Assembly: GCA_008363385.1 (NCBI GenBank)
Contig: RHKY01000034.1
Location: forward strand, 14,903-78,902
Direction: 5' to 3'
DNA length: 64,000 nucleotides
DNA from: Acidobacteriota bacterium
GTDB taxonomy: Bacteria; Acidobacteriota; Thermoanaerobaculia; UBA5066
Under the pieces are notes generated by a model, which saw nothing but the letters and a program-made list of their open reading frames with translations, did not search any database and was not told the DNA's origin. Position numbers and translations under genes: made by a program. This document shows, piece by piece, positions 8,087-63,695 of this stretch. The stretch's first letter is position 1. Every line of letters starts with the position of its first letter.

Positions 8087-8131
8087 GGTGCCTCCCGGCC
8101 GCCATTCTCCCCCGGCGGGGGCGCCGGCGCC

Positions 8132-44330: not shown

Positions 44331-47300
44331 TCAGCCCACTGTCGCCACGATCCGGAGGAGGGCGGGGCCGTAGCGGGCGGCGCGGGCGGGGCCGATGCCG
44401 GGGATCGCGAGGAGGTCGTCCTCGGTCCGGGGGCGGCTCGTCGCGATGGCGAGGAGCGTCTCGTCGGTGAAGACGCGGAAGGCGGGGACGCGCTGGCGCT
44501 TCGCCTCGGCGAGGCGGAAGAGGCGCAGCTCCTCGACGAGGGGCGGGGGGTCCGGCCTCACAGCCCTCCTCGCGGCCCTCGTGGCGCCGCCGGCCGGCTC
44601 GGCGCGCCTGCGGCCCGTCCGCTCCGGCTTCGGCAGCGCGGCCCTCGGCGCGCGGGCCTTGGCGCGCTTCTTCCCCGCGGCCGACGGGGGCGGGACGGCG
44701 ACGCGGGCCTCGACCTCGGCGTCCGGGTCGCGCCCGGCGCGGGTCAGGAAGGCCCTGCGGAACCGGATCGTCTTCCCGTCCTTCTCGAACTCGTCGTCCT
44801 CGATGGTGACGTGGCCGGCGCGCGCGAGGCCCCCGAGGAGGTCCTCGAAGGAGCGGCGGTCGACGGCGGGAAACTGCTTCTCGACCTCGCGGTGGAGCTG
44901 CCCGGTCCCCTGCCCGTCCTTCCACCGGAGGAGCTCGAGCGCGCGCCGGAGCGCCGCCTCCTCCATCGGGCTCGCCCGCCGGGTGCGCGTCGAGAGGCCC
45001 TCGCCCGGCGCGCAGACGTCGCAGACGCCGCACGCCGTCCCCGGGTCGGCCGTGTCGCCGAAATGCCGGACGAGCTGGAGCATCCGGCAGCTCGCCCCCT
45101 CGGCGAACCGCCGGACGAGAACGAGCTGCGTCTTCCGGAACTCCCGCTGCTCCTCGTACGGGCGCTTCCAGTCGGGCTTCCCGCGCGAGGCGAGCCCCTC
45201 GGGAGTGACGACGGCTCCCCCGAAGATCCAGAGCTTCTCGAGCGCCTTCTCGAACGTCTCCGGGTCGAGGCGCGAGCGGGAGGCGAGGTCCTCGCTCGGG
45301 AGCGAGTCCTCCCCGAGACGGGCGAAGACCCTCTCCAGGTCCGACGTCTCGGGGTAGTCCCGCGCGAGGAAGTGCTCGTGCATCCGCGTGTCGCCGTACG
45401 ACTGGAGGAGGATCGCGCGCGAGGGGAGGCCGTCCCGCCCGGCGCGTCCGATCTCCTGGTAGTAGCCCTCGACGCTCCCGGGGAGACCGGTGTGGACGAC
45501 GGTCCTCACGTCCGGCTTGTCGACCCCCATCCCGAAGGCGATCGTCGCCACGATCGCGTCGAGGCGCCCCTCCAGGAACGCCCGCTGCACCTCGTCGCGC
45601 TCCTTCGTCCCCATCCCGGCGTGGTAGGCCGCGGCGCGCGGGCGCGGCCGCAGGTGCTTCGCGAGCTCGGTCGCCTCGCGGCGCGTCGGCGTGTAGACGA
45701 TCGCCGGGAGGCGCGCGGGGTCCGCGAGGACCTCCCTCACCAGGTCCGCGCGCCGGCTGGGCGGGGCCTCCGTCACCTCGACCGCCAGGTTCGTCCGGCG
45801 GAAGCCGTGGATGAACCGGCCCGGCGCGATCAGCCCCAGCTGCGCGGCGATGTCCTCCTGGACGCGCGGCGTGGCCGTGGCGGTCAGCGCGATGACGGGC
45901 GCGGGGCGGAGCGCGGGGAGGCGCGCCCCGAGGAGCCGGTAGTCGGGTCTGAAGTCGTGCCCCCAGTGCGAGATGCAGTGCGCCTCGTCGACGGCGACGA
46001 GAGCGGGGGTCCGCTTCGCGAGCATCTCCGGGAACCCGGGGACCGAGAGCCGCTCGGGCGCGATGAAGAGGAGGTCGAGCTTCCCGTCGAGGTAGTCGCG
46101 GCAGACCTGCCTCGACTCGGCCCGGTCGCGCCCGGAGTGGATCCGCTCGGCGGCGAGGCCGAGGGCGCGGAGCTTGCCGACCTGGTCCTCCATCAGCGCG
46201 ATGAGCGGCGAGACGACGAGCGTCGTCCCCGCGCGGGCGAGGCCCGGCAGCTGGTAGCAGAGCGACTTTCCGGCCCCGGTCGGCATGACGAGGAGGGCGT
46301 CCTTCCCGGCGGTGACCGCGCGGCAGACGGCCTCCTGGTACGGCCGGAACGCGTCGTGGCCGAAGACGTCCTTCAGCAGCTCGCCGAGGCGCTCGGGCGA
46401 GACGGGCTTCCGCGCCGGCCGCTCGACGGCGAAGAGGTCGCCGGAGGAAGCCGGTCCCGCCGCCGCGGGCGCCGGCCTCGCGCGGGTCGATGCCGCGGCC
46501 GCGAGTGCCTGCGGGGCGCCCTCCGGGACGGGGCGCGGCGAAGCGCCCGGCGATCCCGCCGGCGGCTTCCCCGCCTCCCCGACCACCTCGCGGACGTACT
46601 CCTCGATCGAGGCCATGAAGGCCGGGAGCCTCGCCTCGCCCCGCTGGATCCGGGCCAGCTCCGCCTCCCAGCGGCCGGTCAGCGCCGGGCTCTTCACCGA
46701 CTCCGGGACGAGGCCGATCAGCCGGATCCCCTTGTCGGTGGCGACGAGGACCTTCCCGTCGCGCTGGAGGTACCCGCGCGCGATCAGCCCCTCCAGGATC
46801 TCGGCCCGCGTGGCCGGGGTGCCGAGGCCGTTCTCCTTCATCGCCTCGGCCAGCTCCTTCTCGTCGAGCGTCCTCCCGGCCGTCTCCATCGCGGTCAGGA
46901 GCGTGGCGTCGGTGAAGCGCTTCGGCGGCCGCGTCCTCCGCTCGACGGCCGAGGCCTCGACGACGCGCGGTCTCGTCCCGCGCGCGAGGCCCGGCGGGAG
47001 GGACGCGTCGTCGTCCGGCTCGCCGTCCTTCGTCCCCTCCCCGGCCTCCCCCTTCCCCTTCCGCCGAGAGGCCGGCTCGGGCTCGACGGCCCTCCAGCCG
47101 GCCTGCTCGGTCACCGTCCCGGTCGAGCGGAACCGGTCGACGAGGGCGCCCGCGCCCGCCCCGCTCGTGACCGCCGTGACGACCGTCGTCGTCGCGGCGA
47201 CGTGCTCGTCGTGCCAGGCCGCGACGAGCCGGCGGGCGACGAGGTCGTAGAGCGCCTGCTCCTCGGCGTCGAGGCCCCGCGGCGAGACCGGCGTCGGGAG

Positions 47301-48440
47301 GATCGCGTGGTGGTCGGTCACCCTCGCGTCGTCGACGAAGCGCGGCGGGATCGGCCTCTCGAGCGTCCCCGCCGCGAAGAGCGCCCCGTACGCCGGGGCG
47401 AGCGCGCGCATCACGTCCGGCAGCGTCGCGGCCACGTCGCGCGAGAGGTGGCGGCTGTCGGTCCGCGGGTAGGTGATCGCCTTCTTCTCCTCGTACAGCC
47501 GCTGGGCGACCTCGAGCGTCTTCTTCGCGCTCCACCCGAGGAGGCGGTTGGCGTGCCGCTGCAGCTCCGTCAGGTCGAAGAGGAGGGGTGCGGGCGTCCG
47601 CCGCGTCTTCGCCTCGACCGACTCGACCACGGCCTCGCCCGAGAGGACCCGCTCGACCACCCGCGCGGCCTCGGCGCCGTCCTTCGGCAGGCGCCGGCCG
47701 CCCTCCTCCTTCCTCGCCGGGTCGAACCAGGTCCCGCGGTACCGTCCCGCCTCCACGTCGAACGTCGCGACGACCTCCAGGTACTCCTCGGGGACGAACG
47801 CCCGGATCGACAGCTCGCGCTCGACGACCATCGCGAGCGTCGGCGTCTGGACGCGCCCGACCGTCAGCGTCTCGTCGTGGGCGAGCGTGAACGCCCGCGA
47901 GAAGTTCATCCCGACGAGCCAGTCGGCCCGGCTCCGCCCGCGCGCGGCGTCGGCCAGCCGGTCGTACTCGCTCGCGGGGCGCAGCCGCGCGAACCCGTCC
48001 CGGATCGCCTCCGGCGTCAGGGACGAGATCCAGAGCCGCTTCACCGGCTTCGCGCACCCGGCCGCCTCGTACAGCTGCCGGAAGATCAGCTCCCCTTCCC
48101 GCCCCGCGTCCGTCGCGCAGATCACCTCGGTCACGTGCGGGTCGCGGAGGACCTTCGCGACGGCCTCGAACTGCTCCTTCACGCGGTCGGTCACGACGAG
48201 CGGCCAGCTCGAGGGGAGGATCGGGAGGTGCTCGCGCCGCCAGGCCTTCCACTCCGGGCGGATCTCGTGCGGCTGGGCCAGCGCGACGAGGTGCCCGATC
48301 GCCCACGTCACGACGTGCCCGTCCCCGACGAGGCACCCCTCGCCCCGGCGCGTGGCGCCGAGGACGGCCGCCAGGTCGCGCGCCACGGAGGGCTTCTCGG
48401 CCACGACGGCCACGAGGCCGGAGGCTTGGCTCCTCGTCAT
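44331..48440 (-). CDS. fusion protein: type IA DNA topoisomerase (TopoIII/TopB-like) N-terminal half + RecQ-family helicase with HRDC-like C-terminus
   Basis: A single uninterrupted frame. The Toprim domain is VAVVAEKPSVARDLAAVLG, with the acidic TDAGREGE motif. The catalytic tyrosine context is ITYPRTDSRHLS. A Pro/Ala-rich linker follows, then RecQ motifs: FGHDAFRPYQ, LLVMPTGAGKSLCYQLP, VDEAHCISHWGHDFRP, LTATAT, a Zn/RQC-like TACGVCDVC, and an HRDC-like tail (LRLFRLAEAKRQRVPAFRVFTDETLLAIA). The probable start is the ATG at 48440 (MTRSQASGLVAVV); the track ORF extends to 48638. No in-frame start codon precedes the RecQ part. Confidence 0.75.
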   Translation of the reverse strand: MTRSQASGLVAVVAEKPSVARDLAAVLGATRRGEGCLVGDGHVVTWAIGHLVALAQPHEIRPEWKAWRREHLPILPSSWPLVVTDRVKEQFEAVAKVLRDPHVTEVICATDAGREGELIFRQLYEAAGCAKPVKRLWISSLTPEAIRDGFARLRPASEYDRLADAARGRSRADWLVGMNFSRAFTLAHDETLTVGRVQTPTLAMVVERELSIRAFVPEEYLEVVATFDVEAGRYRGTWFDPARKEEGGRRLPKDGAEAARVVERVLSGEAVVESVEAKTRRTPAPLLFDLTELQRHANRLLGWSAKKTLEVAQRLYEEKKAITYPRTDSRHLSRDVAATLPDVMRALAPAYGALFAAGTLERPIPPRFVDDARVTDHHAILPTPVSPRGLDAEEQALYDLVARRLVAAWHDEHVAATTTVVTAVTSGAGAGALVDRFRSTGTVTEQAGWRAVEPEPASRRKGKGEAGEGTKDGEPDDDASLPPGLARGTRPRVVEASAVERRTRPPKRFTDATLLTAMETAGRTLDEKELAEAMKENGLGTPATRAEILEGLIARGYLQRDGKVLVATDKGIRLIGLVPESVKSPALTGRWEAELARIQRGEARLPAFMASIEEYVREVVGEAGKPPAGSPGASPRPVPEGAPQALAAAASTRARPAPAAAGPASSGDLFAVERPARKPVSPERLGELLKDVFGHDAFRPYQEAVCRAVTAGKDALLVMPTGAGKSLCYQLPGLARAGTTLVVSPLIALMEDQVGKLRALGLAAERIHSGRDRAESRQVCRDYLDGKLDLLFIAPERLSVPGFPEMLAKRTPALVAVDEAHCISHWGHDFRPDYRLLGARLPALRPAPVIALTATATPRVQEDIAAQLGLIAPGRFIHGFRRTNLAVEVTEAPPSRRADLVREVLADPARLPAIVYTPTRREATELAKHLRPRPRAAAYHAGMGTKERDEVQRAFLEGRLDAIVATIAFGMGVDKPDVRTVVHTGLPGSVEGYYQEIGRAGRDGLPSRAILLQSYGDTRMHEHFLARDYPETSDLERVFARLGEDSLPSEDLASRSRLDPETFEKALEKLWIFGGAVVTPEGLASRGKPDWKRPYEEQREFRKTQLVLVRRFAEGASCRMLQLVRHFGDTADPGTACGVCDVCAPGEGLSTRTRRASPMEEAALRRALELLRWKDGQGTGQLHREVEKQFPAVDRRSFEDLLGGLARAGHVTIEDDEFEKDGKTIRFRRAFLTRAGRDPDAEVEARVAVPPPSAAGKKRAKARAPRAALPKPERTGRRRAEPAGGATRAARRAVRPDPPPLVEELRLFRLAEAKRQRVPAFRVFTDETLLAIATSRPRTEDDLLAIPGIGPARAARYGPALLRIVATVG

Positions 48441-48539
48441 CGGACGGGGATGTGTACGCCCCGCCGCGCCCCGGCGCAAGGGCCGGCCGGGGGCGGCCCC
48501 CGAGGCGAGGGACCAGCTCCGAGCCGCTATCATCTCCCC

Positions 48540-48770
48540 ATGGCAGGTGCCGGTTCCGGCCGGGAGTTCGACGTCGTCATCGAGCGGGACGAGGAGGGTT
48601 GGTACGTCGCCTCCGTGCCGGCCCTTCGGGGCTGTCACACGCAGGCCCGTTCGCTCGACGAGCTTCGCGAGCGGATCCTCGAGGCGATCGAGCTCTGCCT
48701 CGAGGTGGAAGGCCCTGCCCCGTCACCCCTCGAGTTCGTCGGCATCCAGCGCGTCCGGCTCGCGTCGTGA
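48540..48770 (+). CDS. HicB-like / UPF0150-family antitoxin-like protein (orphan)
   Basis: 76 aa: MAGAGSGREFDVVIERDEEGWYVASVPALRGCHTQARSLDELRERILEAIELCLEV. This is the tail of the otherwise artefactual track ORF 44316..48770. Confidence 0.6.
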   Translation: MAGAGSGREFDVVIERDEEGWYVASVPALRGCHTQARSLDELRERILEAIELCLEVEGPAPSPLEFVGIQRVRLAS

Positions 48771-53979: not shown

Positions 53980-54189
53980 GTGCCTCGTCCGCCGACACCT
54001 CCCGACCGGGACGACGTGCCTGCCGTCCCTCCTTCGCCGGTGATCGACACCGCCGAGATGTGGGAGAACCTCTGCCGGGCCGACGAGCTGTTCGAGGAGT
54101 GCGAGGCGCTTTCTCTCGGGCAGAGGGGCAGCCCGGCGGAGCCGTCCACCCCGGCCGAGAGCGCTCCCGGATGCGACCGGGCCGGCTGA
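53980..54189 (+). CDS. small hypothetical protein, possible partner of the downstream nucleotidyltransferase
   Basis: 69 aa. The tail ...PVIDTAEMWENLCRADELFEECEALSL has protein-like composition. The start is uncertain (internal MWENL possible). Confidence 0.3.
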   Translation: MPRPPTPPDRDDVPAVPPSPVIDTAEMWENLCRADELFEECEALSLGQRGSPAEPSTPAESAPGCDRAG

Positions 54190-54689
54190 TCCGCGCCGCC
54201 CGAGAGCTCGCCGCTGTTCTGGGCGAGGGCTCCGCGCTCGCGGGCGGGCTGGCCGTCGCGGCCTGGGGCGAGATCCGGGCGACCCGCGACGTCGACTTCG
54301 TCACGGCGCTCCCTCTGCACGACGTCGAGCGCCGTCTGCGCGAGAACGGAATCGCCTACGTCGCCAGGCGGGGCGACGTCCTCACGGGTGATCTGCCGTG
54401 GGTCGTGGAAGGGGACCTCGGGGGAGTGCGGTTCCAGGTCTTCGCTCCCCGGGGCGGACGTCCCTTCACGACGGTATCGGTGACACCCGTCGGTGCCGAC
54501 ACGGAGTCCGTTCCCGTCGTCTCTCTCGAGGACCTCCTTCGCCTGAAGCTCGAGGCCGGAGGGCCGAAGGACCTCTGGGACGTCGCCCGGTTGCTCCGTC
54601 AACACCCGGAGCAGCTCTCGCGGACCCGGGCTCGCGCCGCCTCCCTCGGGATCGACGACGAGCTCGCCCGCTGGCTCGAGCGGGAGTAG
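54169..54689 (+). CDS. nucleotidyltransferase-fold protein (MNT / AbiEii-like)
   Basis: About 173 aa starting MRPGRLIRAARELAAVLGEGSALAGGLAVAAWGEIRATRDVDFV. The G[GS]...D.D pattern is typical of minimal nucleotidyltransferases. Confidence 0.55.
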
Positions 54690-54732: not shown

Positions 54733-56598
54733 TCAGTTCACGGCGACGGAGGACCCGGTCGCCAGGGCGCGGATGACGTCGGCGATGGCGCTGGCGGGTT
54801 CCGGGTAGAGGCCTGCCTCCGCGAGGACCCGGCGGCAGTCGTCGCAGAAGGTCGCCTCTCGCAGCTTGCGGTCGAGGCCCGCGCGGTCGGCGCAGAAGTC
54901 GTAGAGGCAGCCCCGGTCCTCCGGGTGCATCACCCGCTCGGGGACGATCCCCCGCTCGCGCAGGCCGTGGAGGAACGTCTCGTACGCCACGAAGGCCGCA
55001 GGGGGGACCGTGGTCACCTCCGCGAGCCCGGCGACGGACGCGATCGCCACGTCGTGGGCCGGGTGCCAGTGAGAGAACCAGCCGTCCGCGAGCGGCCGCC
55101 TCGTGACGAAGACGAGGACCCGCGCCGTCTCGATCCGGAACCAGCTCCGGAGCCTCTCCGCGACGCGCGCCTCCTCGTCCGGCGGCAGCGGCGCCCTCTC
55201 GTCCCAGTCCTGCGGCAGCTCCCCCATCTCGAGCGGCTCGGCGTAGCCCTGGAAGACCGGGCGGCGCGAGGACCGGAAGGCGTCCGCGGACTCCTCGAGC
55301 GCCGCCAGCAGCCCTCTCCCCGACATCGTCAGCGTCCGGAGCGGGCTCTCCTTCAGGATCACCCCGCGCATGGCCCGCCCCTTGAGCGAGTAGTAGACCC
55401 CGGCGTGCCGCATCTTCAGGAGCCTGGGGTCCATGCTCCGCGACACCTCGACGCCGAGGGCGCGGAGGCGGGCGGCAATCGCCAGCACCTCGGGGTCGCC
55501 CCCCGCGTGGAGCCTGAGGCGCTCCGACGTGCGGGTCACGAGCGCCCGGGCGCCTTCGCGGTCCCCCTCCCGGTTCAGCTCCAGCGCCCTCCTGGTGCAG
55601 CGAAGCTCCTCCAGCCGCGCCCGCTCCCGCCGCAAGTCGGCGTCGGCGGGCTGCCGGTCGTTCTCCGCGTGAGAGGCCGCCGTGAACGCCAGCTCCACGG
55701 GCGCGGTCCCGGCCGGCTGGCCCCGCGACAGGAGCTCGAACCGCACCGGCAGCCCGTCACCCGCAGCCGCCGGCGGGAACCGGACGTCGAGCAGGACGGA
55801 CAGCCGCTGCTCGGACACCAGCGAGCCGATCGCCACCCGCGAGGACCCGTCCTCCTGCCGGACCGGGAAGCCGTTCGGGCACTCCACGTCCAGCCCCTCG
55901 GGACCCCGGACGGAGATCTCGGCCTCGGGGATCGCGACGCCGAGAGCCTCGGTCACCTCGTCGGAGACGTACTGCGGGATCTCCTCGGCCGTCGCCACGA
56001 ACCGGAAGTTCCCGCCGCCGGCCTCGGCCATCGCCGAGAGGAGCCCCTCGTCGTAGTCGGCGCCGACGCCGAAGGTCGAGGTCGTGACGCCCGAGACGCG
56101 CCGGTCGGAAGCCTGGCGCGAGATCTCCGCCCGGTCGGTCAGGCCCTGGTTCGCCAGCCCGTCCGAGAGGAGGAGGACGCGAGCCAGCCGCTGCTCCGAG
56201 AGAGAGCCGAAGGCCTCCTGGCACCCCAGCTCCCAGCCCCCGTGCAGGTTCGTCGAACCTCCCGCGGTCACCCTCTCGATCGTCCGGGAGGCGGCGTCGA
56301 CCGCCTGCGGCGAGACGTCGACCGAGGCCTGCAGGACGTCGACCCGGTCGTCGTACACGACGACGGCGAACCGGTCCCCCGGCGAGAGCGACCGGATCGC
56401 CGAGGCGGCCGCCTGCCGGGCCAGATCGAGCTTCTTCCCCCCCATCGAGCCCGACCGGTCGAGGACGATCGACAGGGCGAGCCCCGGGCGCTCGGCGCCC
56501 GGCGCGGCCTCGGGGGCCGTCACCTCCACCCGGACGACGCGGCGGCTGCGCACCCCGGCGCGGACGAGGGAACGGTCGAACCTGGCGCGGAACTCCAT
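54733..56598 (-). CDS. vWA-domain protein with conserved C-terminal Cys4 domain (paralog A)
   Basis: 621 aa. A GGAGG ribosome-binding site precedes the start. The vWA MIDAS motif is LSIVLDRSGSM...LLLSDGLAN...TSTFGVGADYDE. A middle domain follows, then a C-terminal block (HPEDRGCLYDFCADRAGL...ATFCDDCRRVL) with four Cys. Confidence 0.8.
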   Translation of the reverse strand: MEFRARFDRSLVRAGVRSRRVVRVEVTAPEAAPGAERPGLALSIVLDRSGSMGGKKLDLARQAAASAIRSLSPGDRFAVVVYDDRVDVLQASVDVSPQAVDAASRTIERVTAGGSTNLHGGWELGCQEAFGSLSEQRLARVLLLSDGLANQGLTDRAEISRQASDRRVSGVTTSTFGVGADYDEGLLSAMAEAGGGNFRFVATAEEIPQYVSDEVTEALGVAIPEAEISVRGPEGLDVECPNGFPVRQEDGSSRVAIGSLVSEQRLSVLLDVRFPPAAAGDGLPVRFELLSRGQPAGTAPVELAFTAASHAENDRQPADADLRRERARLEELRCTRRALELNREGDREGARALVTRTSERLRLHAGGDPEVLAIAARLRALGVEVSRSMDPRLLKMRHAGVYYSLKGRAMRGVILKESPLRTLTMSGRGLLAALEESADAFRSSRRPVFQGYAEPLEMGELPQDWDERAPLPPDEEARVAERLRSWFRIETARVLVFVTRRPLADGWFSHWHPAHDVAIASVAGLAEVTTVPPAAFVAYETFLHGLRERGIVPERVMHPEDRGCLYDFCADRAGLDRKLREATFCDDCRRVLAEAGLYPEPASAIADVIRALATGSSVAVN

Positions 56599-56616
56599 GC
56601 TGCACCTCCCCCGGTC

Positions 56617-58482
56617 TCAGTTCACGCCCCCGGCCGCGGCGCCCGCGAGCGAGCGGATGACGTCGGCGATCGAGAGGGCCGGCTCCGGGAAGAGGCCCGC
56701 CCGCTCGAGCACCTGGCGGCATTCGTCGCAGAAAGTCGCCGTAGAGAGAGCGCGCTCGAGTCCCTCCCGCGTCGTGCAGGGGTCGTAGAGGCAGCCGCGG
56801 TCCTCCGGGTGCGTCATCTCCTCCGGCACGATCCCCCGTTCGCGCAGCCCGTGCAGGAACGTCTGGTAGGCCACGAACGCCGAGGGGCTCACTCCGCCGG
56901 GGGCGCAGAGCCCCGCCGTGGAGGCGATCGCGACGCACAGGTCCTCGTGCCAGTGCCAGGGCGCGGCGCCGGCGAGGGGCCGCGACGTGAAGACGACGGT
57001 GACGGGGATCTGGTCGGGCCTCCAAAGGACCCGTACCTCGCTGGCGAGGAGGTCCTCGTCGCTGGCGGTCAGTGGCGCCCGCGCATCCGGGGGCTCCGGC
57101 AGCGGCCACTCCACGAACAGGTCCGGGTAGCCTCCGAAGGACTGCACCGGAGCCGCTCGGTAGGCCTCCGCCGCCTCCTCCAGCGCGGGGATCAGGTCCA
57201 GCCTCGCCGTCGTCATCGTCCGGAACCGGCTCCTGATGACGGTCGTGCCCCGGACGGCCCGTCCCTTGATCGAGTAGTAGGCCCCCGCGTGGAGGAGTTT
57301 CCGCGTGACGGGGTTCATCTCGCGCGACACCTTCTCGGCCTCCTCCCCCAGCCGTCCGGAAATCGCCTCCACCTCGGGGTTCCCCGGCGCGTAGAGGAGC
57401 AGCTGCTCGGCCGCCTTCACCGCCACCGCCGCGGCGCCCCTGTAGTCGCCGTCGCGGTTCAGCTCGAGGGCCTTCCTCAGGCTCCGCTTCTCCTCCACCC
57501 TCGCCCGCTCGCGCTGCACCTCCTCGTCGGCGGGCTGCCGGTCGTTCGCCTCGTGCCCGGCCACGGTGAAGACCAGGTCCACGGGCTCGCCCCCGGCAGG
57601 CTCTCCCCGCGAGCGGAGCCCCAGCCGCACCGGCAGGGCATCCCCCTCGGGGGCCTGCGGGAACCGGACGTCGAGCAGGAGCGAGAGCCGCTGCTCGGAG
57701 ACGAGCGAGCCGATCGCCACGTGGAAGGCCCCGTCCACGCGACGCACCGGGAACTCGTTCGGGCACTCCACCTCCAGCCCCTCGGGCCCCCGGACCTCGA
57801 TCTCGGCCTCGGGGAGGGAGAGCGCCAGAACCTCGCTCATCTCGTCGGAGACGTACCGCGGGATCTCCCCGGCCGTGGCGACGTAACGGAAGTTGCCGCC
57901 ACCCGCCTCGGCCATGGACGAGAGGAGCCCCTCGTCGTAGTCCGCGCCGATGCCGAACGTGGAGGTCGTCACGCCCGAGAGGCGCCGCTCCGACGCCCGA
58001 CGGGCGATCTCGCCCCGGTCGGTCAGCCCGTGGTTCGCCAGCCCGTCCGAGAGGAGGAGGACCCGCGCCAGTCGCTGGTCCGAGATCGACCCGAAGGCCT
58101 CGCGGCACCCCGCCTCCCACCCGCCGTGCAGGTCCGTCGAGCCCAGCGCCTCCACCCGCTCGATCGTCCTGGCCGCGGCGTCCACGGACTGCGCCGAGGC
58201 ATCCACGGCCGCCTGCAGCACGTCGACCCGGTGGTCGTAGACGACGACGGCGAACCGGTCCCTCTCCCCCAGCGAGCGGATCGCCGAGACCGCCGCCTCC
58301 CGGGCCAGCTCGATCTTCTTCCCCTCCATCGAGCCGGACCTGTCGAGGACGAGGGAGAGGGCAAGCCTCGGGCGCTCGGCGCCCTGGGCGGCCTCGGGGG
58401 CGGTCACGTCGACCCGGACGACCCGCCGGCTCCGTGCCCCGGCGCGGACGAGGGAACGGTCGGCCCGTGCGCGGATCGGCAT
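56617..58482 (-). CDS. vWA-domain protein with conserved C-terminal Cys4 domain (paralog B, about 70 % identical to A)
   Basis: 621 aa from an ATG preceded by AGGAGG (MPIRARADRSLVRAG...). The architecture matches paralog A (LVLDRSGSM ... HPEDRGCLYDPCTTREGL ... ATFCDECRQVL). The track ORF runs on to 58773 through artefactual sequence. Confidence 0.8.
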   Translation of the reverse strand: MPIRARADRSLVRAGARSRRVVRVDVTAPEAAQGAERPRLALSLVLDRSGSMEGKKIELAREAAVSAIRSLGERDRFAVVVYDHRVDVLQAAVDASAQSVDAAARTIERVEALGSTDLHGGWEAGCREAFGSISDQRLARVLLLSDGLANHGLTDRGEIARRASERRLSGVTTSTFGIGADYDEGLLSSMAEAGGGNFRYVATAGEIPRYVSDEMSEVLALSLPEAEIEVRGPEGLEVECPNEFPVRRVDGAFHVAIGSLVSEQRLSLLLDVRFPQAPEGDALPVRLGLRSRGEPAGGEPVDLVFTVAGHEANDRQPADEEVQRERARVEEKRSLRKALELNRDGDYRGAAAVAVKAAEQLLLYAPGNPEVEAISGRLGEEAEKVSREMNPVTRKLLHAGAYYSIKGRAVRGTTVIRSRFRTMTTARLDLIPALEEAAEAYRAAPVQSFGGYPDLFVEWPLPEPPDARAPLTASDEDLLASEVRVLWRPDQIPVTVVFTSRPLAGAAPWHWHEDLCVAIASTAGLCAPGGVSPSAFVAYQTFLHGLRERGIVPEEMTHPEDRGCLYDPCTTREGLERALSTATFCDECRQVLERAGLFPEPALSIADVIRSLAGAAAGGVN

Positions 58483-58702: not shown

Positions 58703-58954
58703 GTGAACCCCAGGAAGCTGCTCGAGCGGGCGCTCCGGTCGCCGCACAACCTTCGATTCGTCGAAGCGTACACATTGGCCGAGGCCTTTGGCTTCCGCCT
58801 TTCTCGCGTCAGCGGCAGCCATCACATCTACACGCATCCCGGCATTCCGGAGCTGCTGAACCTCCAGGAAGTCCGCGGCCAGGCCAAGGCCTATCAGATC
58901 CGCCAATTGCTTCAGCTCGTCGAACGGCATAACCTCGAGATCGGCGGCGCGTGA
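58703..58954 (+). CDS. hicA: HicA-family toxin (YcfA-like mRNA interferase)
   Basis: 83 aa, GTG start: VNPRKLLERALRSPHNLRFVEAYTLAEAFGFRLSRVSGSHHIYTHPG, the HicA fold signature. Confidence 0.75.
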   Translation: MNPRKLLERALRSPHNLRFVEAYTLAEAFGFRLSRVSGSHHIYTHPGIPELLNLQEVRGQAKAYQIRQLLQLVERHNLEIGGA

Positions 58955-59172
58955 TGAACGACTACCACATCAACATCTTCCCGAGCGAGGAGGACGGGGG
59001 CTACATCGCCGACATCCCCGACCTCTCCCATTGCTCGGCCTTTGGCGAGACCCCCGAAGCCGCGCTCGCCGAGGTCCTGAAGGCGAAGCAGGCCTGGCTG
59101 GAGGCCGCCCGCGTCGAGGGGAAGCCGATACCCCCGCCGTCCTTCCGTCCCGCGATCTATCAGGTCGCGTAG
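58951..59172 (+). CDS. hicB: HicB-family antitoxin
   Basis: 73 aa: MMNDYHINIFPSEEDGGYIADIPDLSHCSAFGETPEAALAEVLKAKQAWLEAARVEGKPIP. A 4-nt overlap with hicA. Confidence 0.75.
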   Translation: MMNDYHINIFPSEEDGGYIADIPDLSHCSAFGETPEAALAEVLKAKQAWLEAARVEGKPIPPPSFRPAIYQVA

Positions 59173-59498
59173 GCGGTCCCCCCGCTCGGCCGATCCCTTC
59201 CCCGTCCCGGAAACCGGACACCATCTGTCGGTGCGCGGATTGCATCTTCTTCCGTGACGGCAGGCGCCCGGGGCTCGCGGCTCTCGCCCCCCGGCGCCTC
59301 CGGCGGCGACCTCGGCGTTCTTTGAAGTCCAGGCGGCCCCCCGTTCCCGGGGCCGCCGGCATGAAGAGTGGCGGCGAGAGTTCCGGCTCGCAGACCCGCC
59401 CGCCAGACCGTAGTCCTCGACGGTGGCCCAGCCGGCCCGGCCGAAAGGCCGGGACCCATGCGCGACGGGAACGGACCCTCTCTCGCGAAAGGACACCC

Positions 59499-61016
59499 AT
59501 GCCGCGCAAGGCCCGCCCCCGGGTCTCCCCGCCGCCCCCGGCTCCCGCTCCGGCTCCCGCGCCGGTCCCGCCTCCGGCTCCCGCTCCGGTTCCTGCGCCG
59601 GTTCCCGTGCCGGATCCCGCGCCCCCAGCTGCCCCGGCCGGCCCGCCGCGCGTCCGGTTCCTGCGGCTCCTCGGCCTTCACGGCTGGGACGGGCTCGACG
59701 CGCCCGTCCTGGCCGCGCTCGCCACCGAGTCGCCGCTCCTCCTGATCGGCCCGCACGGCAGCGGGAAGACCATGGTCCTGAACCGGCTGGCCGAGGCGCT
59801 GGGGCTCGTCCACCGCCACTACAACGCCTCGCTCCTCTCCTTCGACGACCTCGTCGGCTTCCCCGTCCCGCGCGACGGCCGGCTCGAGTGGCTGCAGACG
59901 CCGTCCACGATCCACGGCGCCGAGTCGGTCCTCTTCGACGAGGTCTCGCGCTGCCGTCCCGAGGTGCAGAACAAGCTCTTCCCCCTCGTCCACGAGCGGG
60001 TCCTGATGGGCGTGGCTCTGCCTCGCCTCGTCCACCGCTGGGCGGCGATGAACCCGCCGCCGGCCGAGGGGACGGACGAGGGCTACGCCGGCGCCGAGCC
60101 GCTCGACGTGGCGCTGGCGGACCGCTTCGCCTTCGTCCTGAGCGTCCCCTCCCTGGCCGACCTAGGCGCGGAGGACCGTCGCCGGGTCCTGCGTCCCGGG
60201 GCCTTCCGCGCGCGGAGGGCGGGGCGGGCCGTCCGGCGGCTGGTCGCCGCGGCCCGGAGGCACACGCGCCGGCTCGACGCGGCCGCCGGGGACGCCGCGG
60301 CGGAGTACGTCTCCCTCGTCGCCGACAGGCTCGGCGAGGCGGGGCACCCGCTCTCGACGCGGCGGGCGCAGCAGCTCGTGCGGAACGTCGTCTCGGTCCG
60401 CGGCGCCACCGCGGCGCTCGGGGGAGCGGACGACCCCGAGGGGGACGCCCTCACCGCGCTCCGGTCGTCGCTCCCCGACGCGGCCTGGGGCCAGCCGGTT
60501 CCCCCGAACGCCGTCCTCGCCGCCCACCGGATCGCCTGGAACGCGGCGGCGCTCCCTCCCGACTCCGCGAGGCGCCGCCTCCTGACCGCGACCCGCCCCG
60601 AGCAGCGGATCGCGCTGGCCCTCGTGGACGGGATCCCGCGCGACGAGGCGACGCTCGCGCTCGCCGACGCGTACGCGTCGCTCTCCCTCCCGTCCCGCCT
60701 GGTGACGGCGGCGATCCTGATGCCGGTCCTCTCGCGCCGGACGGACCTCCCCGCGATCGCTCTCGAGGCCGTCGCCACGGACTGGGCCCGGCTCGCCGCC
60801 GACGACCGTCCGTACGTCTTCGTCTACGCCTCGGACGGCTGGAAGCGGACGATCCTCTCCACCTACCTGCCCCGCCTCGCGGACGACTCGCCCCGCAGCC
60901 TCGCGCTCTCGGCCGTCGCCGTCGCGCTGGTCCGGGAAGGGACGCGCTTCGATGTCGCCGAGCTCGAGGCCGCCTGGGACCGGACGCGCGCGGCGCTCGG
61001 GGGGAGCCTGCCGTGA
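59499..61016 (+). CDS. MoxR-family AAA+ ATPase with Pro/Ala-rich N-terminal extension
   Basis: About 505 aa, ATG preceded by AAGGA (MPRKARPRVSPPPPAPAPAPAPVPP...). Walker A is LLLIGPHGSGKTMVLNRLAE, Walker B / sensor is ESVLFDEVSRCRPEVQNKLFPLVHERV, and an Arg-finger region follows. The N-terminal part of track ORF 59031..61016 is not coding. Confidence 0.8.
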   Translation: MPRKARPRVSPPPPAPAPAPAPVPPPAPAPVPAPVPVPDPAPPAAPAGPPRVRFLRLLGLHGWDGLDAPVLAALATESPLLLIGPHGSGKTMVLNRLAEALGLVHRHYNASLLSFDDLVGFPVPRDGRLEWLQTPSTIHGAESVLFDEVSRCRPEVQNKLFPLVHERVLMGVALPRLVHRWAAMNPPPAEGTDEGYAGAEPLDVALADRFAFVLSVPSLADLGAEDRRRVLRPGAFRARRAGRAVRRLVAAARRHTRRLDAAAGDAAAEYVSLVADRLGEAGHPLSTRRAQQLVRNVVSVRGATAALGGADDPEGDALTALRSSLPDAAWGQPVPPNAVLAAHRIAWNAAALPPDSARRRLLTATRPEQRIALALVDGIPRDEATLALADAYASLSLPSRLVTAAILMPVLSRRTDLPAIALEAVATDWARLAADDRPYVFVYASDGWKRTILSTYLPRLADDSPRSLALSAVAVALVREGTRFDVAELEAAWDRTRAALGGSLP

Positions 61017-61363
61017 GCCCGCCCGCCCTCCTCCACAACGTCGGGATGCCGTCCGGGACCCCCGTCAACGTCCGGCCCCCGATCCTCGCCGGCCTGGCCT
61101 TCCGCTGGAGCGTGCCGCGCGACAGGATGGTCGCGAAGGCGCGCTCCGAGGCGATCGCGGCGGCGCTGGCGGAGCTCGGCGTCCCCGACCTCGTCGGCGT
61201 CTTCCTGGCCTCGTACCCCGGCACGGCGATCCCCCTCGCCCCCGGGCCGGCGCTCCACGGCCTCTTCCAGCGCCGCTCCGGGCCGCTCTACCTGCCCCAC
61301 CGCCCCCTCACGTCCGCGCCCGCGAGGCGGTACGACCCCTTCACCCTCGTCTTCCCGACCTGA
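61013..61363 (+). CDS. small hypothetical protein translationally coupled to the MoxR ATPase
   Basis: About 116 aa from a GTG overlapping the MoxR stop (GTGA): VSPPALLHNVGMPSGTPVNVRPPILAGLAFRWSVPRDRMVAKARSEAIAAALAELG... The composition is protein-like. Confidence 0.4.
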   Translation: MSPPALLHNVGMPSGTPVNVRPPILAGLAFRWSVPRDRMVAKARSEAIAAALAELGVPDLVGVFLASYPGTAIPLAPGPALHGLFQRRSGPLYLPHRPLTSAPARRYDPFTLVFPT

Positions 61364-61374
61364 GAAAGGTGGCC

Positions 61375-62727
61375 GTGAGCCGATCCGACCTGACCCTCCG
61401 CATCCTCCACGCCGTCCCGTCCGCCGCCTACGAGATGCAGGGGCTCCTCTCGCTCCTGGCAGTGGAGGAGTCCGAGGCCGTCCCCACCGCCGCCGTCTCC
61501 TGCGAGCGGCGGCCCGTCCTGCGCGTCAACCCCCGCTTCGTGGCCGAGCGGTGCCAGGCGCCCGAGCACCTGCTCCTCCTCGTCCTGCACGAGCTCCACC
61601 ACGTCCTCCTCGGGCACACGCGCCTCTTCCCGCGCGCCACCCGCGCCCAGAACGTCGCCTTCGACGCCGTCGTCAACGCCCTCCTCTGCGCCCGCTTCCC
61701 CGACCAGGCCTACACGTCCTTCTTCCTCGGGCTCTACGGAAGGGAGCACGGTCCGCTCCGGCTGCTGGCGCCCCCGCTCGCCGTCCGCGCGCCGGCGCCG
61801 CTGGACGCGCTGCACAGCAGGCTCTACGCGAGCGACGGCGGCGCCACGGCCCGGGAGGTCTACGAGGCGATCGTCCGGGAGGTCGACGCGCTGCCGGACG
61901 GGGAGGGCGGCGACCCGGAGGACGCCCCTCCCCTCCTCGGCGGCCACGGCGACGAGGGAGAGGAGGACTGGGGGACGGCCGGCCCGCTCGCCCGGGACGT
62001 CGTCGACGCCGTCCGCGAGATCGTCGAGCGCTGGCCGGCGCCCGCCTGTCCCGAGCGCGGCCGGAGCCTCACCGACCTCCTGCGGGAGACGCGGGTCCGG
62101 TCCCTCCGGCCTCCCGAGACCGTCCTCTCCGCGGTCAGGCGCGCTCTCGACGCCGCGTCGAACCCGAGGCGGCGCGGCACCCTCCGCGGCGGCGCGGTCC
62201 CCGCGCTCCTCCCCCTCCCGTCCCTCCGCGACCGGCGCGCCTCCGTCCTGCGCCAGTCGGGGAGCGAGCCGCTCTTCTTCGCGGGCGAGACCCGGTCCGC
62301 CGCGGGCCGGCGCGCCGGCTCGACGAGCGTCTACCTCGACGTCAGCGGCAGCATGGAGGGCTACCTCCCCGCTCTCTACGGCGCCTTCCGGGCCCTCCGC
62401 TCGCGGATCGACCCGGACGTGCGGGTCTTCTCCACGCGCGTCTTCCGCGTCCCGCTGGAGCAGCTGGTCGCGGGGAAGTGCAAGAGCACCGGCGGCACCG
62501 ACGGCCGGGCGGCGCTCCTCGACGCCCTCGCGTCCCGGGCCCGCCGGGTCCTTCTCGTGACGGACGGGTACGTCGGCAGGCCGGACCCGGAGCTCGCCGC
62601 CCGCGTCCGCCGCGCCGGTCTCGAGGTCCGCGTCCTCCTGACGCCGGGCGGCTGGCGGGACGACCTCGCGGCCCTGGCCTCGCGCGTCGACGTCCTGCCG
62701 GCCCTGACGGAAGGAGGTGCGGCGTGA
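61375..62727 (+). CDS. HExxH metallopeptidase-like N-domain + vWA domain protein (DUF2201/CoxE-like MoxR partner)
   Basis: About 450 aa from a GTG with AAAGGTGG upstream (VSRSDLTLRILHAVPSAAYEMQGLLSLL). The HExxH motif is LLLVLHELHHVLLGH. The C-terminal vWA/MIDAS is VYLDVSGSMEGYLPALYGAF...VLLVTDGYVG. The start coordinate is good to about 3 nt. Confidence 0.75.
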   Translation: MSRSDLTLRILHAVPSAAYEMQGLLSLLAVEESEAVPTAAVSCERRPVLRVNPRFVAERCQAPEHLLLLVLHELHHVLLGHTRLFPRATRAQNVAFDAVVNALLCARFPDQAYTSFFLGLYGREHGPLRLLAPPLAVRAPAPLDALHSRLYASDGGATAREVYEAIVREVDALPDGEGGDPEDAPPLLGGHGDEGEEDWGTAGPLARDVVDAVREIVERWPAPACPERGRSLTDLLRETRVRSLRPPETVLSAVRRALDAASNPRRRGTLRGGAVPALLPLPSLRDRRASVLRQSGSEPLFFAGETRSAAGRRAGSTSVYLDVSGSMEGYLPALYGAFRALRSRIDPDVRVFSTRVFRVPLEQLVAGKCKSTGGTDGRAALLDALASRARRVLLVTDGYVGRPDPELAARVRRAGLEVRVLLTPGGWRDDLAALASRVDVLPALTEGGAA

Positions 62728-63695
62728 GCGGCCCCCGCCTGCGATTCGCCGAGGCGGTCTGCTCGGGCCACCCCGACCGGCTCGCCGACTCCGTGGCCGA
62801 CCGGATCGTGGACCTCGCCCTCTCGCACGACGGCGACGCGCTGGTGGCCGTCGAGGTCGCCCTCTTCCGGGAGGCGGTCTTCGTGGACGGCCGGATCGCG
62901 GCCGGGGAGACGTGCGACGCCGCCGTGTCGGAGGCGGAGGTCGTAAGGGCGGTGCGGGACGCCTACCGCGCGGCGGGCTACGAGGGGCCCGTGCACGTCC
63001 CCCCGCAGCTGTACGAGCCCGATCCGCACGCCCTCGCCGTCCGGCTCGACCTGTGCCTCGGCCCGCTCGGCCCCGGCGAGCGCGCCACGCGGCTCGTCGC
63101 CGACGACCAGGTGATCGGCGTCGGGTACGCCTGTCGCGGCGAGCGGGCCGGCCTGATCCCGCTCGAGCAGGCCCTCGCGCGCGACTTCGTCGCCGCGCTC
63201 GAGGGCCTGAGGCGGGACCGGCCGGACCTGTACGGCCCCGACGGCAAGGTCCTCGTCGCGGTCCAGGGGCGCCGCCTCCACGCCGTAGCGCTCGCCGTCC
63301 ACCACGCCGTCGAGGCGGACTGGCTCGGCCTCGTCGCCGCCACGAAGCGCGCCTGCCTCGCGGTCGCGGACGAGTACGTCGCATCAGGGGAGCTCGACCC
63401 GCCCGGCGAGGAGGTCCCGTGGCTCTTCAACGGCATGGGGCCTTTCTCCGTCGGCGGGCCGATGGCCGACAACGGCCTCTCCGGCAAGAAGCTGGTCGCC
63501 GAGGCGTACGGCACCTTTGTCCCGGTCGGCGGCGGCACCGTCCACGGCAAGGACCCGAAGAAGCCCGACGTCCGCGCCCAGCGGATCGCCCGCGAGCGTG
63601 CCGTCGCCCTCGTCCGCGCCGGCGCCCCCGAGGCCACCGTCTGGGTCGTCTTCCGCCCCGGCGACACCGATCCCGCCTGGATCGAGGAGGGGTGA
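62724..63695 (+). CDS. archaeal-type S-adenosylmethionine-synthetase (MAT, PF01941)-like protein
   Basis: 323 aa from a GTG (GGAGG upstream) overlapping the previous stop. GHPDRLADSVADRIVDLAL resembles the archaeal MAT N-terminal GHPD motif, and FNGMGPFSVGGPMADNGLSGKKLV resembles its C-terminal Gly-rich loop. The assignment is from motif recall only. Confidence 0.4.
   Translation: MSGPRLRFAEAVCSGHPDRLADSVADRIVDLALSHDGDALVAVEVALFREAVFVDGRIAAGETCDAAVSEAEVVRAVRDAYRAAGYEGPVHVPPQLYEPDPHALAVRLDLCLGPLGPGERATRLVADDQVIGVGYACRGERAGLIPLEQALARDFVAALEGLRRDRPDLYGPDGKVLVAVQGRRLHAVALAVHHAVEADWLGLVAATKRACLAVADEYVASGELDPPGEEVPWLFNGMGPFSVGGPMADNGLSGKKLVAEAYGTFVPVGGGTVHGKDPKKPDVRAQRIARERAVALVRAGAPEATVWVVFRPGDTDPAWIEEG

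Follow-up and report, generated by a model that had tools for sequence, protein, structure and literature searches.

What is a gene resembling a SAM synthetase doing at the end of an operon that also encodes a MoxR-class ATPase and a vWA protein? SAM synthetase (methionine adenosyltransferase, MAT, or MetK) is usually viewed as one universal housekeeping enzyme. The operon lies in an Acidobacteriota contig, of which we analysed a stretch of 64,000 nucleotides (the window). A preliminary description had proposed that the gene encodes an archaeal-type (class II) MAT-like enzyme, shorter than true MATs, that could generate or modify a nucleotide- or SAM-derived signal in a conflict-like system rather than make housekeeping SAM. 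Our analysis points elsewhere: the cassette looks like an undescribed SAM-starvation response, neither a housekeeping gene nor a classical defence effector.

The gene (62724..63695, + strand) encodes a short, divergent MetK-family adenosyltransferase-like protein of 323 aa with a predicted MAT fold. We confirmed the open reading frame, and its GC contents at codon positions 1, 2 and 3 (0.82/0.50/0.96) are typical of coding DNA at the 73.7% GC of the window. The GTG start, located just 3' of a GGAGG Shine-Dalgarno sequence, shares the nucleotides GTGA (62724-62727) with the TGA stop of the vWA gene, in line with the translational coupling to the MoxR/vWA operon proposed previously. More than 100 homologues begin at this position, which supports the annotated start; the NCBI model of the gene has 405 aa, and its start must lie around 82 codons further upstream. 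We also located the two features that had suggested a MAT, the GHPD motif of the N-terminus (residues 15-18) and the Gly-rich C-terminal loops (GGPMADNGLSGKK at residue 244 and VGGGTVHGKDPKK at residue 268). The protein is indeed short: aligned with E. coli MetK (29% identity; 384 aa), it ends near MetK residue 310 and lacks around 70 C-terminal residues.

The resemblance to MATs is far above what is expected by chance. The protein matches the Pfam profiles PF00438 (6e-14) and PF02773 (5e-12, model positions 1-76 of 138), as well as PF02772 under its gathering score. A profile of the family matches the MATs of the PDB with E-values of 1e-45 to 1e-29. The AF2 model (pLDDT 87.6, pTM 0.86) retrieves MetK and MAT2A at the top of the Foldseek search against the PDB (E 5e-20, TM 0.70-0.76 for this predicted model). 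The TIGR01034 profile aligns with residues 8-311 (model positions 3-298 of 377), but at 123.5 bits, far from its cut-off of 309.4 bits. Hence, the MAT-like part of the preliminary description was borne out, whereas its archaeal part had to be abandoned, as two of the checks it had proposed indicate: structure prediction revealed likeness to MetK and MAT2A, and the search with PF01941, the archaeal MAT family, gave no match at E<=1. The family profile retrieved no archaeal MAT from the PDB, even at E<=10, and all PDB sequence matches, like all of the 50 Foldseek matches listed, are labelled as bacterial or eukaryotic MATs. We thus rejected an archaeal-type MAT. Judging from sequence and predicted structure, the gene is a genuine but divergent and shortened relative of the bacterial/eukaryotic-type SAM synthetase.

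This gene is the last of four tightly packed genes of the same strand, which encode, in this order, a MoxR-class AAA+ protein, a small protein, a protein combining zincin and MIDAS-vWA domains, and the MetK-like enzyme. The first (59499..61016, + strand, GC3 of 0.95) encodes a 505 aa ATPase of the AAA_5 family (PF07728, 1e-10) with both Walker motifs, A (GPHGSGKT) and B (LFDEVSRC). Its nearest PDB sequences are NorQ and the AAA modules of Midasin, and it has a weak match to bpMoxR (E 0.009). The Pro/Ala-rich N-terminus of this protein is not conserved, and its start is the least certain boundary of the operon. The second gene (61013..61363, + strand, GC3 of 0.99) has a GTG start overlapping the AAA+ stop (GTGA) and encodes a protein of 116 aa without Pfam match, for which a word search found two database homologues. 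It carries the motifs L-L-H-N at the N-terminus and RRSGPLYLP..LVFP at the C-terminus, and its family, defined by an HMM, is found at this position, flanked by the AAA+ and vWA genes, in the short clade of the cassette as well as in the long one. The third gene (61369..62727, + strand) encodes a two-domain protein of 452 aa. A zincin-like domain (HExxHxxLGH, DUF2201_N) forms its N-terminal part, and a vWA domain of the CoxE type its C-terminal part, with an intact MIDAS motif in which DVSGS, GGT and TDG are invariant.

The association between these genes is conserved. The zincin-vWA gene is directly 5' of the MAT-like gene in 46 of the 52 loci with a MAT-like match of at least 110 bits and an upstream flank, and the AAA+ gene is the first of the cassette in 23 of the 24 loci where this flank is sufficient. 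Neither gene is found at any of the 75 loci with weaker, canonical-type matches. The reciprocal search, starting from the vWA protein, reached three loci, all of which have the MAT-like gene. Wherever the flank permits the comparison, gene order is constant from 70% down to 32% identity, in high- and low-GC lineages. The low-GC metagenomic lineages encode the same four genes with a long form of the MAT-like protein; the loss of around 70 C-terminal residues is a trait of the short subclade of the window, whose members are mainly found in Acidobacteriota MAGs. Two apparent exceptions to the arrangement were discarded. A called gene that seemed to fuse vWA and MAT-like parts (P0379, 776 aa) stems from an assembly frameshift, the vWA part shifting frame within the called gene, and the fourth gene of L145 (374 aa, no Pfam match) was called in the wrong frame, the MAT-like gene being present in another one.

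SAM itself seems to control the cassette. The 5' leader of the operon in the window contains a candidate SAM-I-type riboswitch aptamer (59356..59464, + strand), which is separated by 35 nt from the AAA+ start codon (ATG). It is matched by the full RF00162 model (positions 1-108; clan CL00012) at 29 bits, under the gathering score of 44.4 (E = 0.0021 over 6 kb, 1.1e-4 over 311 nt). Riboswitch matches occur directly 5' of the first cassette gene in 21 of the 29 loci tested; the other eight have none (L036, L037, L042, L069, L145, L146, L147 and L148). All elements are on the + strand, 5' of the AAA+ start, and three classes occupy the same leader position: SAM-I (e.g., 63.5 bits in L002, above the threshold, and 36.8 bits in L152), SAM-I/IV (57.5 bits in L056 and 47.8 bits in L048, both above the gathering score of 41.1), and SAM-II (34.1 bits in L150 for a gathering score of 36, where it overlaps the Shine-Dalgarno sequence and the ATG). 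Among 12 elements, 96.4% of the cells were paired and 12 of the 32 pairs showed compensatory changes, with slid controls at 28-44%. This covariation supports the four-helix junction of SAM-I (P1-P4), in an alignment that was fitted to the Rfam model and thus favours the model structure. We found no terminator-like site in the leader. From these sequences, SAM riboswitches appear to switch the cassette off. Since SAM riboswitches from three classes are found in front of the operon, its expression is expected when SAM is scarce, and at low SAM a role in making or restoring SAM fits better than one in consuming it. We therefore favour, as a reading that has about an even chance of being right, that the cassette is an auxiliary SAM module, i.e., a SAM-repressed four-gene operon whose catalytic member would be a divergent MetK-family 5'-adenosyltransferase.

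The genomic context must be weighed against this reading, because neighbourhoods rich in toxin-antitoxin modules leave room for a role in conflict. Of the seven neighbourhoods covered by gene tables (the window, L006, L007 and L144-L147), five have such modules adjoining the cassette, e.g., the window with hicAB and a gene resembling AbiEii, and L007, L144, L145 and L147 with PIN/VapB, HigB, HepT/MNT or HicA. Genes for NERD-UvrD helicases are found 3' of the cassette in five loci, as are genes for RNase H-SF1 helicases in L145 and L147. Such surroundings typify accessory or conflict genes more than they do core metabolism. Two tandem vWA paralogues of 621 aa each (54733..58482, - strand) are divergent from the operon and possibly associated with it. 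They are 65% identical to each other, and each combines an N-terminal vWA domain (Pfam VWA/VWA_3, 1e-15) with a weak match to TPR-S and a Cys-containing C-terminal domain. Their homologues are a few kb from the cassette in L002, L006 and L145, and are located at contig ends in L029, L041 and L060.

The cassette might thus be an accessory immune or abortive conflict module, which we regard as unlikely. In one version, the riboswitch would sense a collapse of SAM, e.g., caused by a phage SAM lyase, as the signal of infection, and the MetK-like enzyme would be either a back-up source of SAM beyond the reach of phage MetK inhibitors, or an effector or generator of signals that consumes ATP once the MoxR/vWA/zincin machine has released it. 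Besides the neighbouring genes, a sporadic distribution is consistent with this explanation (the peptide patterns of the short form gave only five matches among 185,579 species genomes), and so is the pairing of MoxR and vWA, the core of vWA-MoxR-VMAP ternary conflict systems (Kaur et al. 2020, PMC7159879). Yet, toxin-antitoxin modules are generally frequent in these genomes, MetK is not mentioned in the cited work, and Pfam revealed no VMAP or effector-type family in the four operon proteins. PADLOC identified no known defence system: the operon vWA, MAT-like and tandem vWA proteins were not matched, and the AAA+ protein had weak generic matches only. The cassette was not found on the plasmids of PLSDB, which gave canonical metK matches (30-33% identity) and none for the vWA protein, nor on the viral contigs of IMG/VR, where matches were of the canonical type. 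Finally, SAM riboswitches, as well as the co-location with canonical metK in two loci (L032 and L150), are hallmarks of genes of methionine and SAM metabolism. With riboswitches of three classes upstream and no PADLOC match, the SAM-derived signal of a conflict system put forward in the preliminary description is not supported in that form.

We analysed the active sites of 53 unique cassette proteins (28 short-form and 25 long-form), using canonical MetKs from 18 loci for comparison. The equivalents of twelve ATP, triphosphate and metal positions (H14, D16, E42, D118, D163, K165, F230, D238, K245, K265, K269 and D271 in E. coli numbering) are all kept in the protein of the window. None of them varies among the 28 short-form proteins, and each is retained by at least 24 of the 25 proteins of the long form. 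The methionine side of the site was rebuilt. In the window, E55 is replaced by R, Q98 by V and R244 by K, and the gating loop (MetK residues ~98-108) is replaced by DLCLGPLGPGER. The same changes prevail in the family (E55 to R in 46 of the 53 proteins, R244 to K in 52, Q98 to V, I or L in 52 and to Pro in the remaining one), and E55, Q98, S99, I102 and R244 are invariant in the 18 canonical MetKs. Among 148 representatives classified at 50% identity, the residue signature tells around 61 clusters of the cassette type apart from 47 canonical ones. By this measure, the cassette proteins seem to form a MetK subfamily of their own, with no fewer than ~60 clusters. A conserved Cys triad in the enzyme was considered and rejected, as C13 is not kept in the long clade.

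In published MAT structures, Glu55 and Gln98 are the ligands holding the amino-acid end of methionine. With both replaced and no gating loop left, the enzyme may not use free L-methionine as its substrate. The enzyme might instead transfer the 5'-deoxyadenosyl group of ATP to a non-methionine acceptor, e.g., methionine in a modified or N-blocked form, the thioether of a keto- or hydroxy-acid, or some residue in the small protein, with the zincin, vWA and AAA+ proteins processing or delivering the substrate. The loss of these methionine-side elements in a protein whose ATP/triphosphate site is fully kept argues for such an acceptor, as does the co-encoding of a conserved protease domain with a small protein bearing a conserved N-terminal LLHN(M). 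We nevertheless consider it rather improbable. Asp238, the other ligand of the amino group, is kept, and an Arg at position 55 could take over the binding of the carboxylate. The control by SAM riboswitches is simplest if the product is SAM. The candidacy of a peptidyl-methionine, the Met of LHNMS in the small protein, was weakened because this residue is not conserved (V in the window, I in L152, W in L148).

The active sites of MATs sit at the dimer interface, where E55, Q98 and R244 are residues supplied by the partner subunit. Their replacement could also be expected of a non-catalytic, regulatory paralogue that forms mixed oligomers with MetK, or that is an adaptor for the remodelling of MetK by MoxR/vWA in SAM starvation, and the canonical metK near the cassette in L032 and L150 could provide the partner. 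This is very unlikely: the twelve catalytic positions hardly vary, if at all, among 53 diverse sequences, which favours catalysis over a pseudoenzyme. The names given to members of the subfamily by NCBI and JGI ('methionine adenosyltransferase' or 'S-adenosylmethionine synthetase') would suit a plain housekeeping SAM synthetase, or else a MAT of the archaeal type gained by transfer, but either is barely credible given the low TIGR01034 scores (107-162 bits for the other cassette proteins, against 460 for the true metK on the contig of one of them), the cut C-terminus and altered substrate site and, for the transfer, the negative PF01941 and PDB searches. That the gene is not a housekeeping metK, as proposed in the preliminary description, is supported by its TIGR01034 score and by two loci with a further metK: in L032 the canonical metK (460 bits) lies around 7 kb downstream of the cassette and one type of riboswitch precedes both, and in L150 it is immediately 5' of the cassette, which excludes the MAT-like gene as the sole metK there. 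The 64-kb window itself contains no other metK.

Returning to the auxiliary SAM module, what we observed is the predicted MAT fold, the pattern of residues, an operon of fixed order, its riboswitches and the coexistence with canonical metK; the reaction, the substrate and the roles of the AAA+, vWA and zincin proteins are inferred. Falling SAM would lead the riboswitch of the leader to release the expression of the AAA+ protein, the small protein, the zincin-vWA protein and the MetK-like enzyme. Because the entire ATP, Mg2+, K+ and triphosphate apparatus is kept, the enzyme most likely retains the attack on C5' of ATP, followed by hydrolysis of the released triphosphate. In the rebuilt clamp, which has lost the gating loop and Gln98, the family-conserved Arg at the position of Glu55 could hold the methionine carboxylate, and the expected product would be SAM, or a close SAM-like sulfonium, on top of the output of canonical MetK. 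By analogy with known pairs, the AAA+ and vWA proteins would most likely be an activase or maturase for the MetK-like enzyme or for the small protein. A bolder version, which is rather unlikely, makes the cassette an alarm-and-rescue machine for SAM collapse. Riboswitches of three unrelated architectures would read a drop in SAM caused by starvation, a phage SAM lyase or a MetK inhibitor; the AAA+/MIDAS/zincin apparatus would then activate the MetK paralogue devoid of gating loop, and SAM would be restored independently of the host MetK, or a new acceptor adenosylated. If so, this would be the first MoxR/vWA 'activase' for an enzyme of the SAM family, and a new branch of adenosyl transfer.

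The cassette appears undescribed: in the full-text literature searched, we found no MetK-like gene tied to MoxR/vWA and no SAM riboswitch before a MoxR operon, and hence no description of this association. It has parts in common with several known systems. The archaeal MATs (PF01941) share with its enzyme no more than the general class of reaction and, according to the literature, a distant common fold; there is no detectable sequence match. The vWA-MoxR-VMAP systems have the same MoxR and vWA core, to which the AAA+ protein adds its weak bpMoxR match, and similar surroundings rich in toxin-antitoxin modules. The cassette differs from them in lacking VMAP or effector domains, and PMC7159879 is silent on SAM synthetases and describes no riboswitch control as a feature of these systems.

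With bacterial and eukaryotic MetK/MAT2A, the enzyme shares the three-domain MAT fold, the GHPD motif, the GGPxxDxGLxGxK and GGGxxxGKDxxKxD loops, the ligands of triphosphate, Mg2+ and K+, and the Phe that stacks on adenine. It differs by its low identity to MetK, a score below the equivalog cut-off, the replacements of Glu55, Gln98, the gating loop and Arg244, its constant place in a MoxR/vWA cassette and, in the short subclade, the missing C-terminus. The public label 'methionine adenosyltransferase' conceals these differences. If our reading is correct, the subfamily would provide a natural MAT scaffold without gating loop, of possible interest for the engineering of SAM analogues. The regulons of SAM riboswitches (S-box, SAM-I/IV and SAM-II), which include metK leaders, likewise have an aptamer within the 5' leader that precedes the first gene. 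Here, the relative of MetK is joined by the MoxR ATPase and by the zincin-vWA and small proteins, none of which is known from the S-box regulon.

NorQ/NorD, CbbQ/CbbO and CoxD/CoxE are activase or maturase pairs encoded beside their client enzymes. They share with the cassette a MoxR-class ATPase of the AAA_5 family, a CoxE-type MIDAS-vWA partner and, within the operon, an enzyme gene, and this is the analogy on which a role of AAA+/vWA as activase or maturase seems most likely. The analogy leaves half of the cassette unexplained, because these systems have neither the HExxH zincin domain that the cassette adds to the vWA protein, nor the small protein. A further difference is the client, which here would be a paralogue of MAT. 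What distinguishes the cassette is thus a MetK subfamily with a rebuilt substrate site, in the constant company of MoxR, protease-vWA and small-protein partners and preceded by SAM riboswitches from three classes. Should the auxiliary SAM module be confirmed, the SAM regulon would gain a member, and the MoxR/vWA machines a new kind of client.

The MetK-like gene (62724..63695, +), last of a four-gene cassette, is a genuine reading frame of 323 aa. Its start codon, GTG, shares bases with the TGA that ends the preceding zincin-vWA gene (GTGA) and lies just 3' of a GGAGG sequence, which agrees with the translational coupling to the MoxR/vWA operon noticed in the preliminary description. The GHPD-containing N-terminus and Gly-rich loop reported there are also present, the former at residues 15-18 and the latter as two loops, GGPMADNGLSGKK from residue 244 and VGGGTVHGKDPKK from residue 268. 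The GC3 of the gene is 0.96 and the GC of the window 73.7%. The NCBI model (405 aa) begins around 82 codons too far 5', since more than 100 homologues (318-356 aa) share the start point of the 323-aa protein. Annotation artefacts caused by high GC and long-read indels were seen around 62724 and in the homologous loci L144 and L145; the gene call in L145 was in the wrong frame, and an apparent vWA-MetK fusion (protein P0379) was a frameshift artefact. Public records name the family ‘methionine adenosyltransferase’, ‘S-adenosylmethionine synthetase’ or ‘hypothetical protein’.

The protein was matched by the Pfam profiles of bacterial/eukaryotic MetK domains PF00438 (6e-14) and PF02773 (5e-12), and by PF02772 under its gathering score (4e-6). 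It scored 123.5 bits with the metK equivalog model TIGR01034 (cut-off 309.4), and the Pfam search gave no match to the archaeal methionine adenosyltransferase (MAT) family PF01941. A profile built from 43 family members matched in the PDB only bacterial/eukaryotic entries deposited as SAM synthetases or MATs (1e-45 to 1e-29); with the limit relaxed to E<=10, it still matched none from archaea. The AF2 model (pLDDT 87.6, pTM 0.86) superposes on MetK and MAT2A (TM 0.70-0.76). Hence, the gene was rightly called MAT-like and wrongly called archaeal-type. A search of 1.84 billion representatives gave 3587 clusters matching at E<=1e-3; among the best 148 of these 3587 representatives, which we classified, around 61 had the signature of the cassette and 47 the canonical one. 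The protein was also correctly described as shorter than bona fide MATs, as it ends near MetK residue 310. Long forms (360-420 aa) retain the MetK C-terminus (e.g., WGHF..PWE in the homologue P0131), so that by sequence comparison the short form is a derived subclade.

We aligned proteins from the fetched loci with E. coli MetK (whose sequence is supported by its own tblastn match to the window). In the 53 unique cassette-associated proteins (28 short, 25 long), H14, D16, E42, D118, D163, K165, F230, D238, K245, K265, K269 and D271 are retained, in every short form and in at least 24 of the long ones. Position E55 is Arg in 46 of the 53, Q98 is Val, Ile or Leu in 52, R244 is Lys in 52, and the gating-loop motif xQSPDIxxGV has become DLCLGPLxxxE(R). 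All 18 canonical MetKs retain E55, Q98, S99, I102 and R244. Going by published MAT structures, we take E55, Q98 and D238 to bind the amino-acid end of methionine. Since the ATP/triphosphate residues are kept and E55 and Q98 are changed, the alignment indicates that the ATP/triphosphate machinery is intact and the clamp for the second substrate rebuilt. Arg at position 55 might be a carboxylate ligand in place of the lost Gln.

The cassette opens with an AAA_5/MoxR ATPase gene (59499..61016, +) with Walker A and B motifs, whose closest solved relatives are Midasin and NorQ. It is followed by a gene for a small protein (61013..61363, +, 116 aa), with its start codon overlapping the stop of the AAA+ gene (GTGA), and by the zincin-vWA gene (61369..62727, +), second-last in the cassette. 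The four genes are co-oriented, with a GC3 of 0.95-0.99. The small protein matched no known domain, and its family is present in the short and the long clades, with motifs LLHN (N-terminal) and RRSGPLYLP..LVFP (C-terminal).

The survey of this association covered five loci from genomes, 79 from metagenomes and a handful retrieved with an exact protein. The zincin-vWA gene was directly 5' in 46 of the 52 loci that had upstream flank and a MAT-like match scoring 110 bits or more. Where this flank exceeded 3.6 kb (24 loci), 23 had the AAA+ gene; neither gene was found in any of the 75 loci with weaker, canonical-type matches. The exceptions were a frameshifted copy (L006), a canonical metK (L065), three fragmentary matches (L053, L059, L067) and a different context in L041 (response regulator upstream, MerR-family gene and vWA paralogue downstream). 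The association persists to 32% identity (L056, L063) and in low-GC lineages (L148, L150, L152), and starting from the vWA protein we found a MAT-like gene in three out of three loci. The long-clade locus L048 has two additional ORFs before the AAA+ gene, 426-1154 (243 aa, Cys-rich C-terminus) and 1170-1946 (259 aa), both without a Pfam match and without homologues among the remaining loci.

When the operon region was scanned with Rfam, SAM-I matched over its full length at 59356..59464 (29 bits, gathering score 44.4 and thus sub-threshold), ending 35 nt 5' of the AAA+ ATG. SAM-I was matched at the equivalent position in L002 (63.5 bits), L001 (27.9), L003 (34.6), L005 (30.8), L011 (27.9) and L144 (33.8), and in L152 (36.8, truncated at the contig end). 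SAM-I/IV (gathering score 41.1) passed its threshold in L056 (57.5) and L048 (47.8, 5' of the additional ORFs), with lower scores in L049 (37.5), L020/L021 (35.8) and L006 (34.2). L150 has a SAM-II match (RF00521, 34.1 bits, gathering score 36; local E 2.9e-6) overlapping the Shine-Dalgarno and ATG. Our own covariance model, built from eight of these riboswitch elements, added L004, L007, L009, L010, L023 and L032, and found only three further copies besides the pre-cassette elements in 574 kb searched. Altogether, a SAM riboswitch precedes the first cassette gene in 21 of 29 loci tested. Across 12 elements, 96.4% of cells were paired vs 28-44% in slid controls, with compensatory changes in 12 of 32 pairs, in an alignment fitted to the model and thus favouring it. 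The SAM-II architecture is not known to be related to the SAM-I clan, and the occurrence of SAM-II and of SAM-I or SAM-I/IV at one position is strong comparative evidence that cassette expression is tied to SAM. To our knowledge, every SAM-I or SAM-II switch characterised so far shuts its genes off when bound by SAM.

Two of the cassette loci also encode a canonical metK. In L032 it lies around 7 kb downstream (TIGR01034 460 bits; three Pfam domains at 196/134/110 bits), preceded by a second copy of the cassette's riboswitch type (15565-15672). In L150 it comes immediately before the riboswitch and the cassette, with motifs TSESVTEGHPDK, AGEVSS, HKQAPQ and GRKIIADTYGG. Further riboswitch copies occur elsewhere: L001 has one at 925-1029, around 1 kb 5' of the pre-AAA+ copy, with a hicA-like gene between them. 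L009, from the organism of the window and with proteins 95-100% identical to those encoded there, has another SAM-I-type riboswitch with leader (6006-6114; its counterpart would fall at ~65.3 kb, just outside the window end) before a 761-aa Sel1-repeat protein (6150-8432; PF08238, seven repeats), 1.6 kb past the MetK-like gene. Sel1-repeat homologues adjoin the cassette in L032 and L003 too; SAM control of such a protein is, as far as we know, unusual.

The best-supported reading is that the cassette is an auxiliary adenosyltransferase module repressed by SAM. From the directly established fold, residues, operon, riboswitches and coexistence with metK, we infer that the enzyme has most likely retained the MetK type of reaction on ATP, with SAM or a close analogue as the probable product.

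The main rival is a role in conflict, for which the sporadic distribution of the cassette and its neighbourhood speak. A hicA/hicB-like pair (58703-58954, PF07927 1e-6; 58951-59172, PF15919 6e-5; both +) immediately precedes the riboswitch and operon and shares their strand, and an AbiEii-like nucleotidyltransferase toxin gene (54060-54689, +, PF08843 1.6e-7) adjoins two tandem vWA paralogues (54733-56598 and 56617-58482, -; 621 aa each, 65% identical). Other cassette loci have PIN/VapB, HigB, HepT/MNT and HicA modules, and a NERD-UvrD-like helicase gene (~550 aa) recurs 3' of the cassette in five (L045, L046, L014, L003, L063). Both vWA paralogues carry the vWA domain at the N-terminus and match TPR-S weakly; their C-terminal domain has no Pfam match but a conserved Cys/His stretch (HPEDRGCLYD.C...FCD.CR). 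Their homologues are near the cassette in L002, L006, L029, L060 and L145, and in L041 beside a MAT-like gene without the MoxR cassette. L145 and L147 share a large gene combining RNase H-like and SF1 helicase parts, accompanied by a 489-aa protein lacking a Pfam match; in L145 this 489-aa protein aligns to the C-terminal part of the window paralogues. The 54-64 kb region is an accessory-looking islet bounded by housekeeping genes (cytochrome bd oxidase, short-chain fatty acid transporter); outside it, a 1435-aa ORF (44334-48638, -) with Toprim, type IA topoisomerase and RecQ-type helicase domains (DEAD, Helicase_C, RecQ_Zn_bind, HRDC) is by its domains an apparent Topo IA-RecQ fusion. Conflict and the SAM-repressed module could be one reading if the trigger were a phage-caused collapse of SAM. 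The generation of a signal at the expense of SAM, suggested in the preliminary description, fits poorly because expression would occur only at low SAM.

Full-text searches of the literature found no link between a MetK relative and MoxR/vWA and no SAM riboswitch placed before a MoxR operon, and MetK is unmentioned in the main paper on vWA-MoxR conflict systems (Kaur et al. 2020, PMC7159879). We rate as new a distinct MetK subfamily within a new riboswitch-controlled operon. Known MoxR-vWA activase pairs do not account for the zincin domain or for the small protein of this cassette. By analogy with them, its MoxR/vWA pair would probably act for the MetK-like enzyme as NorQD, CbbQO and CoxDE do for their respective clients.
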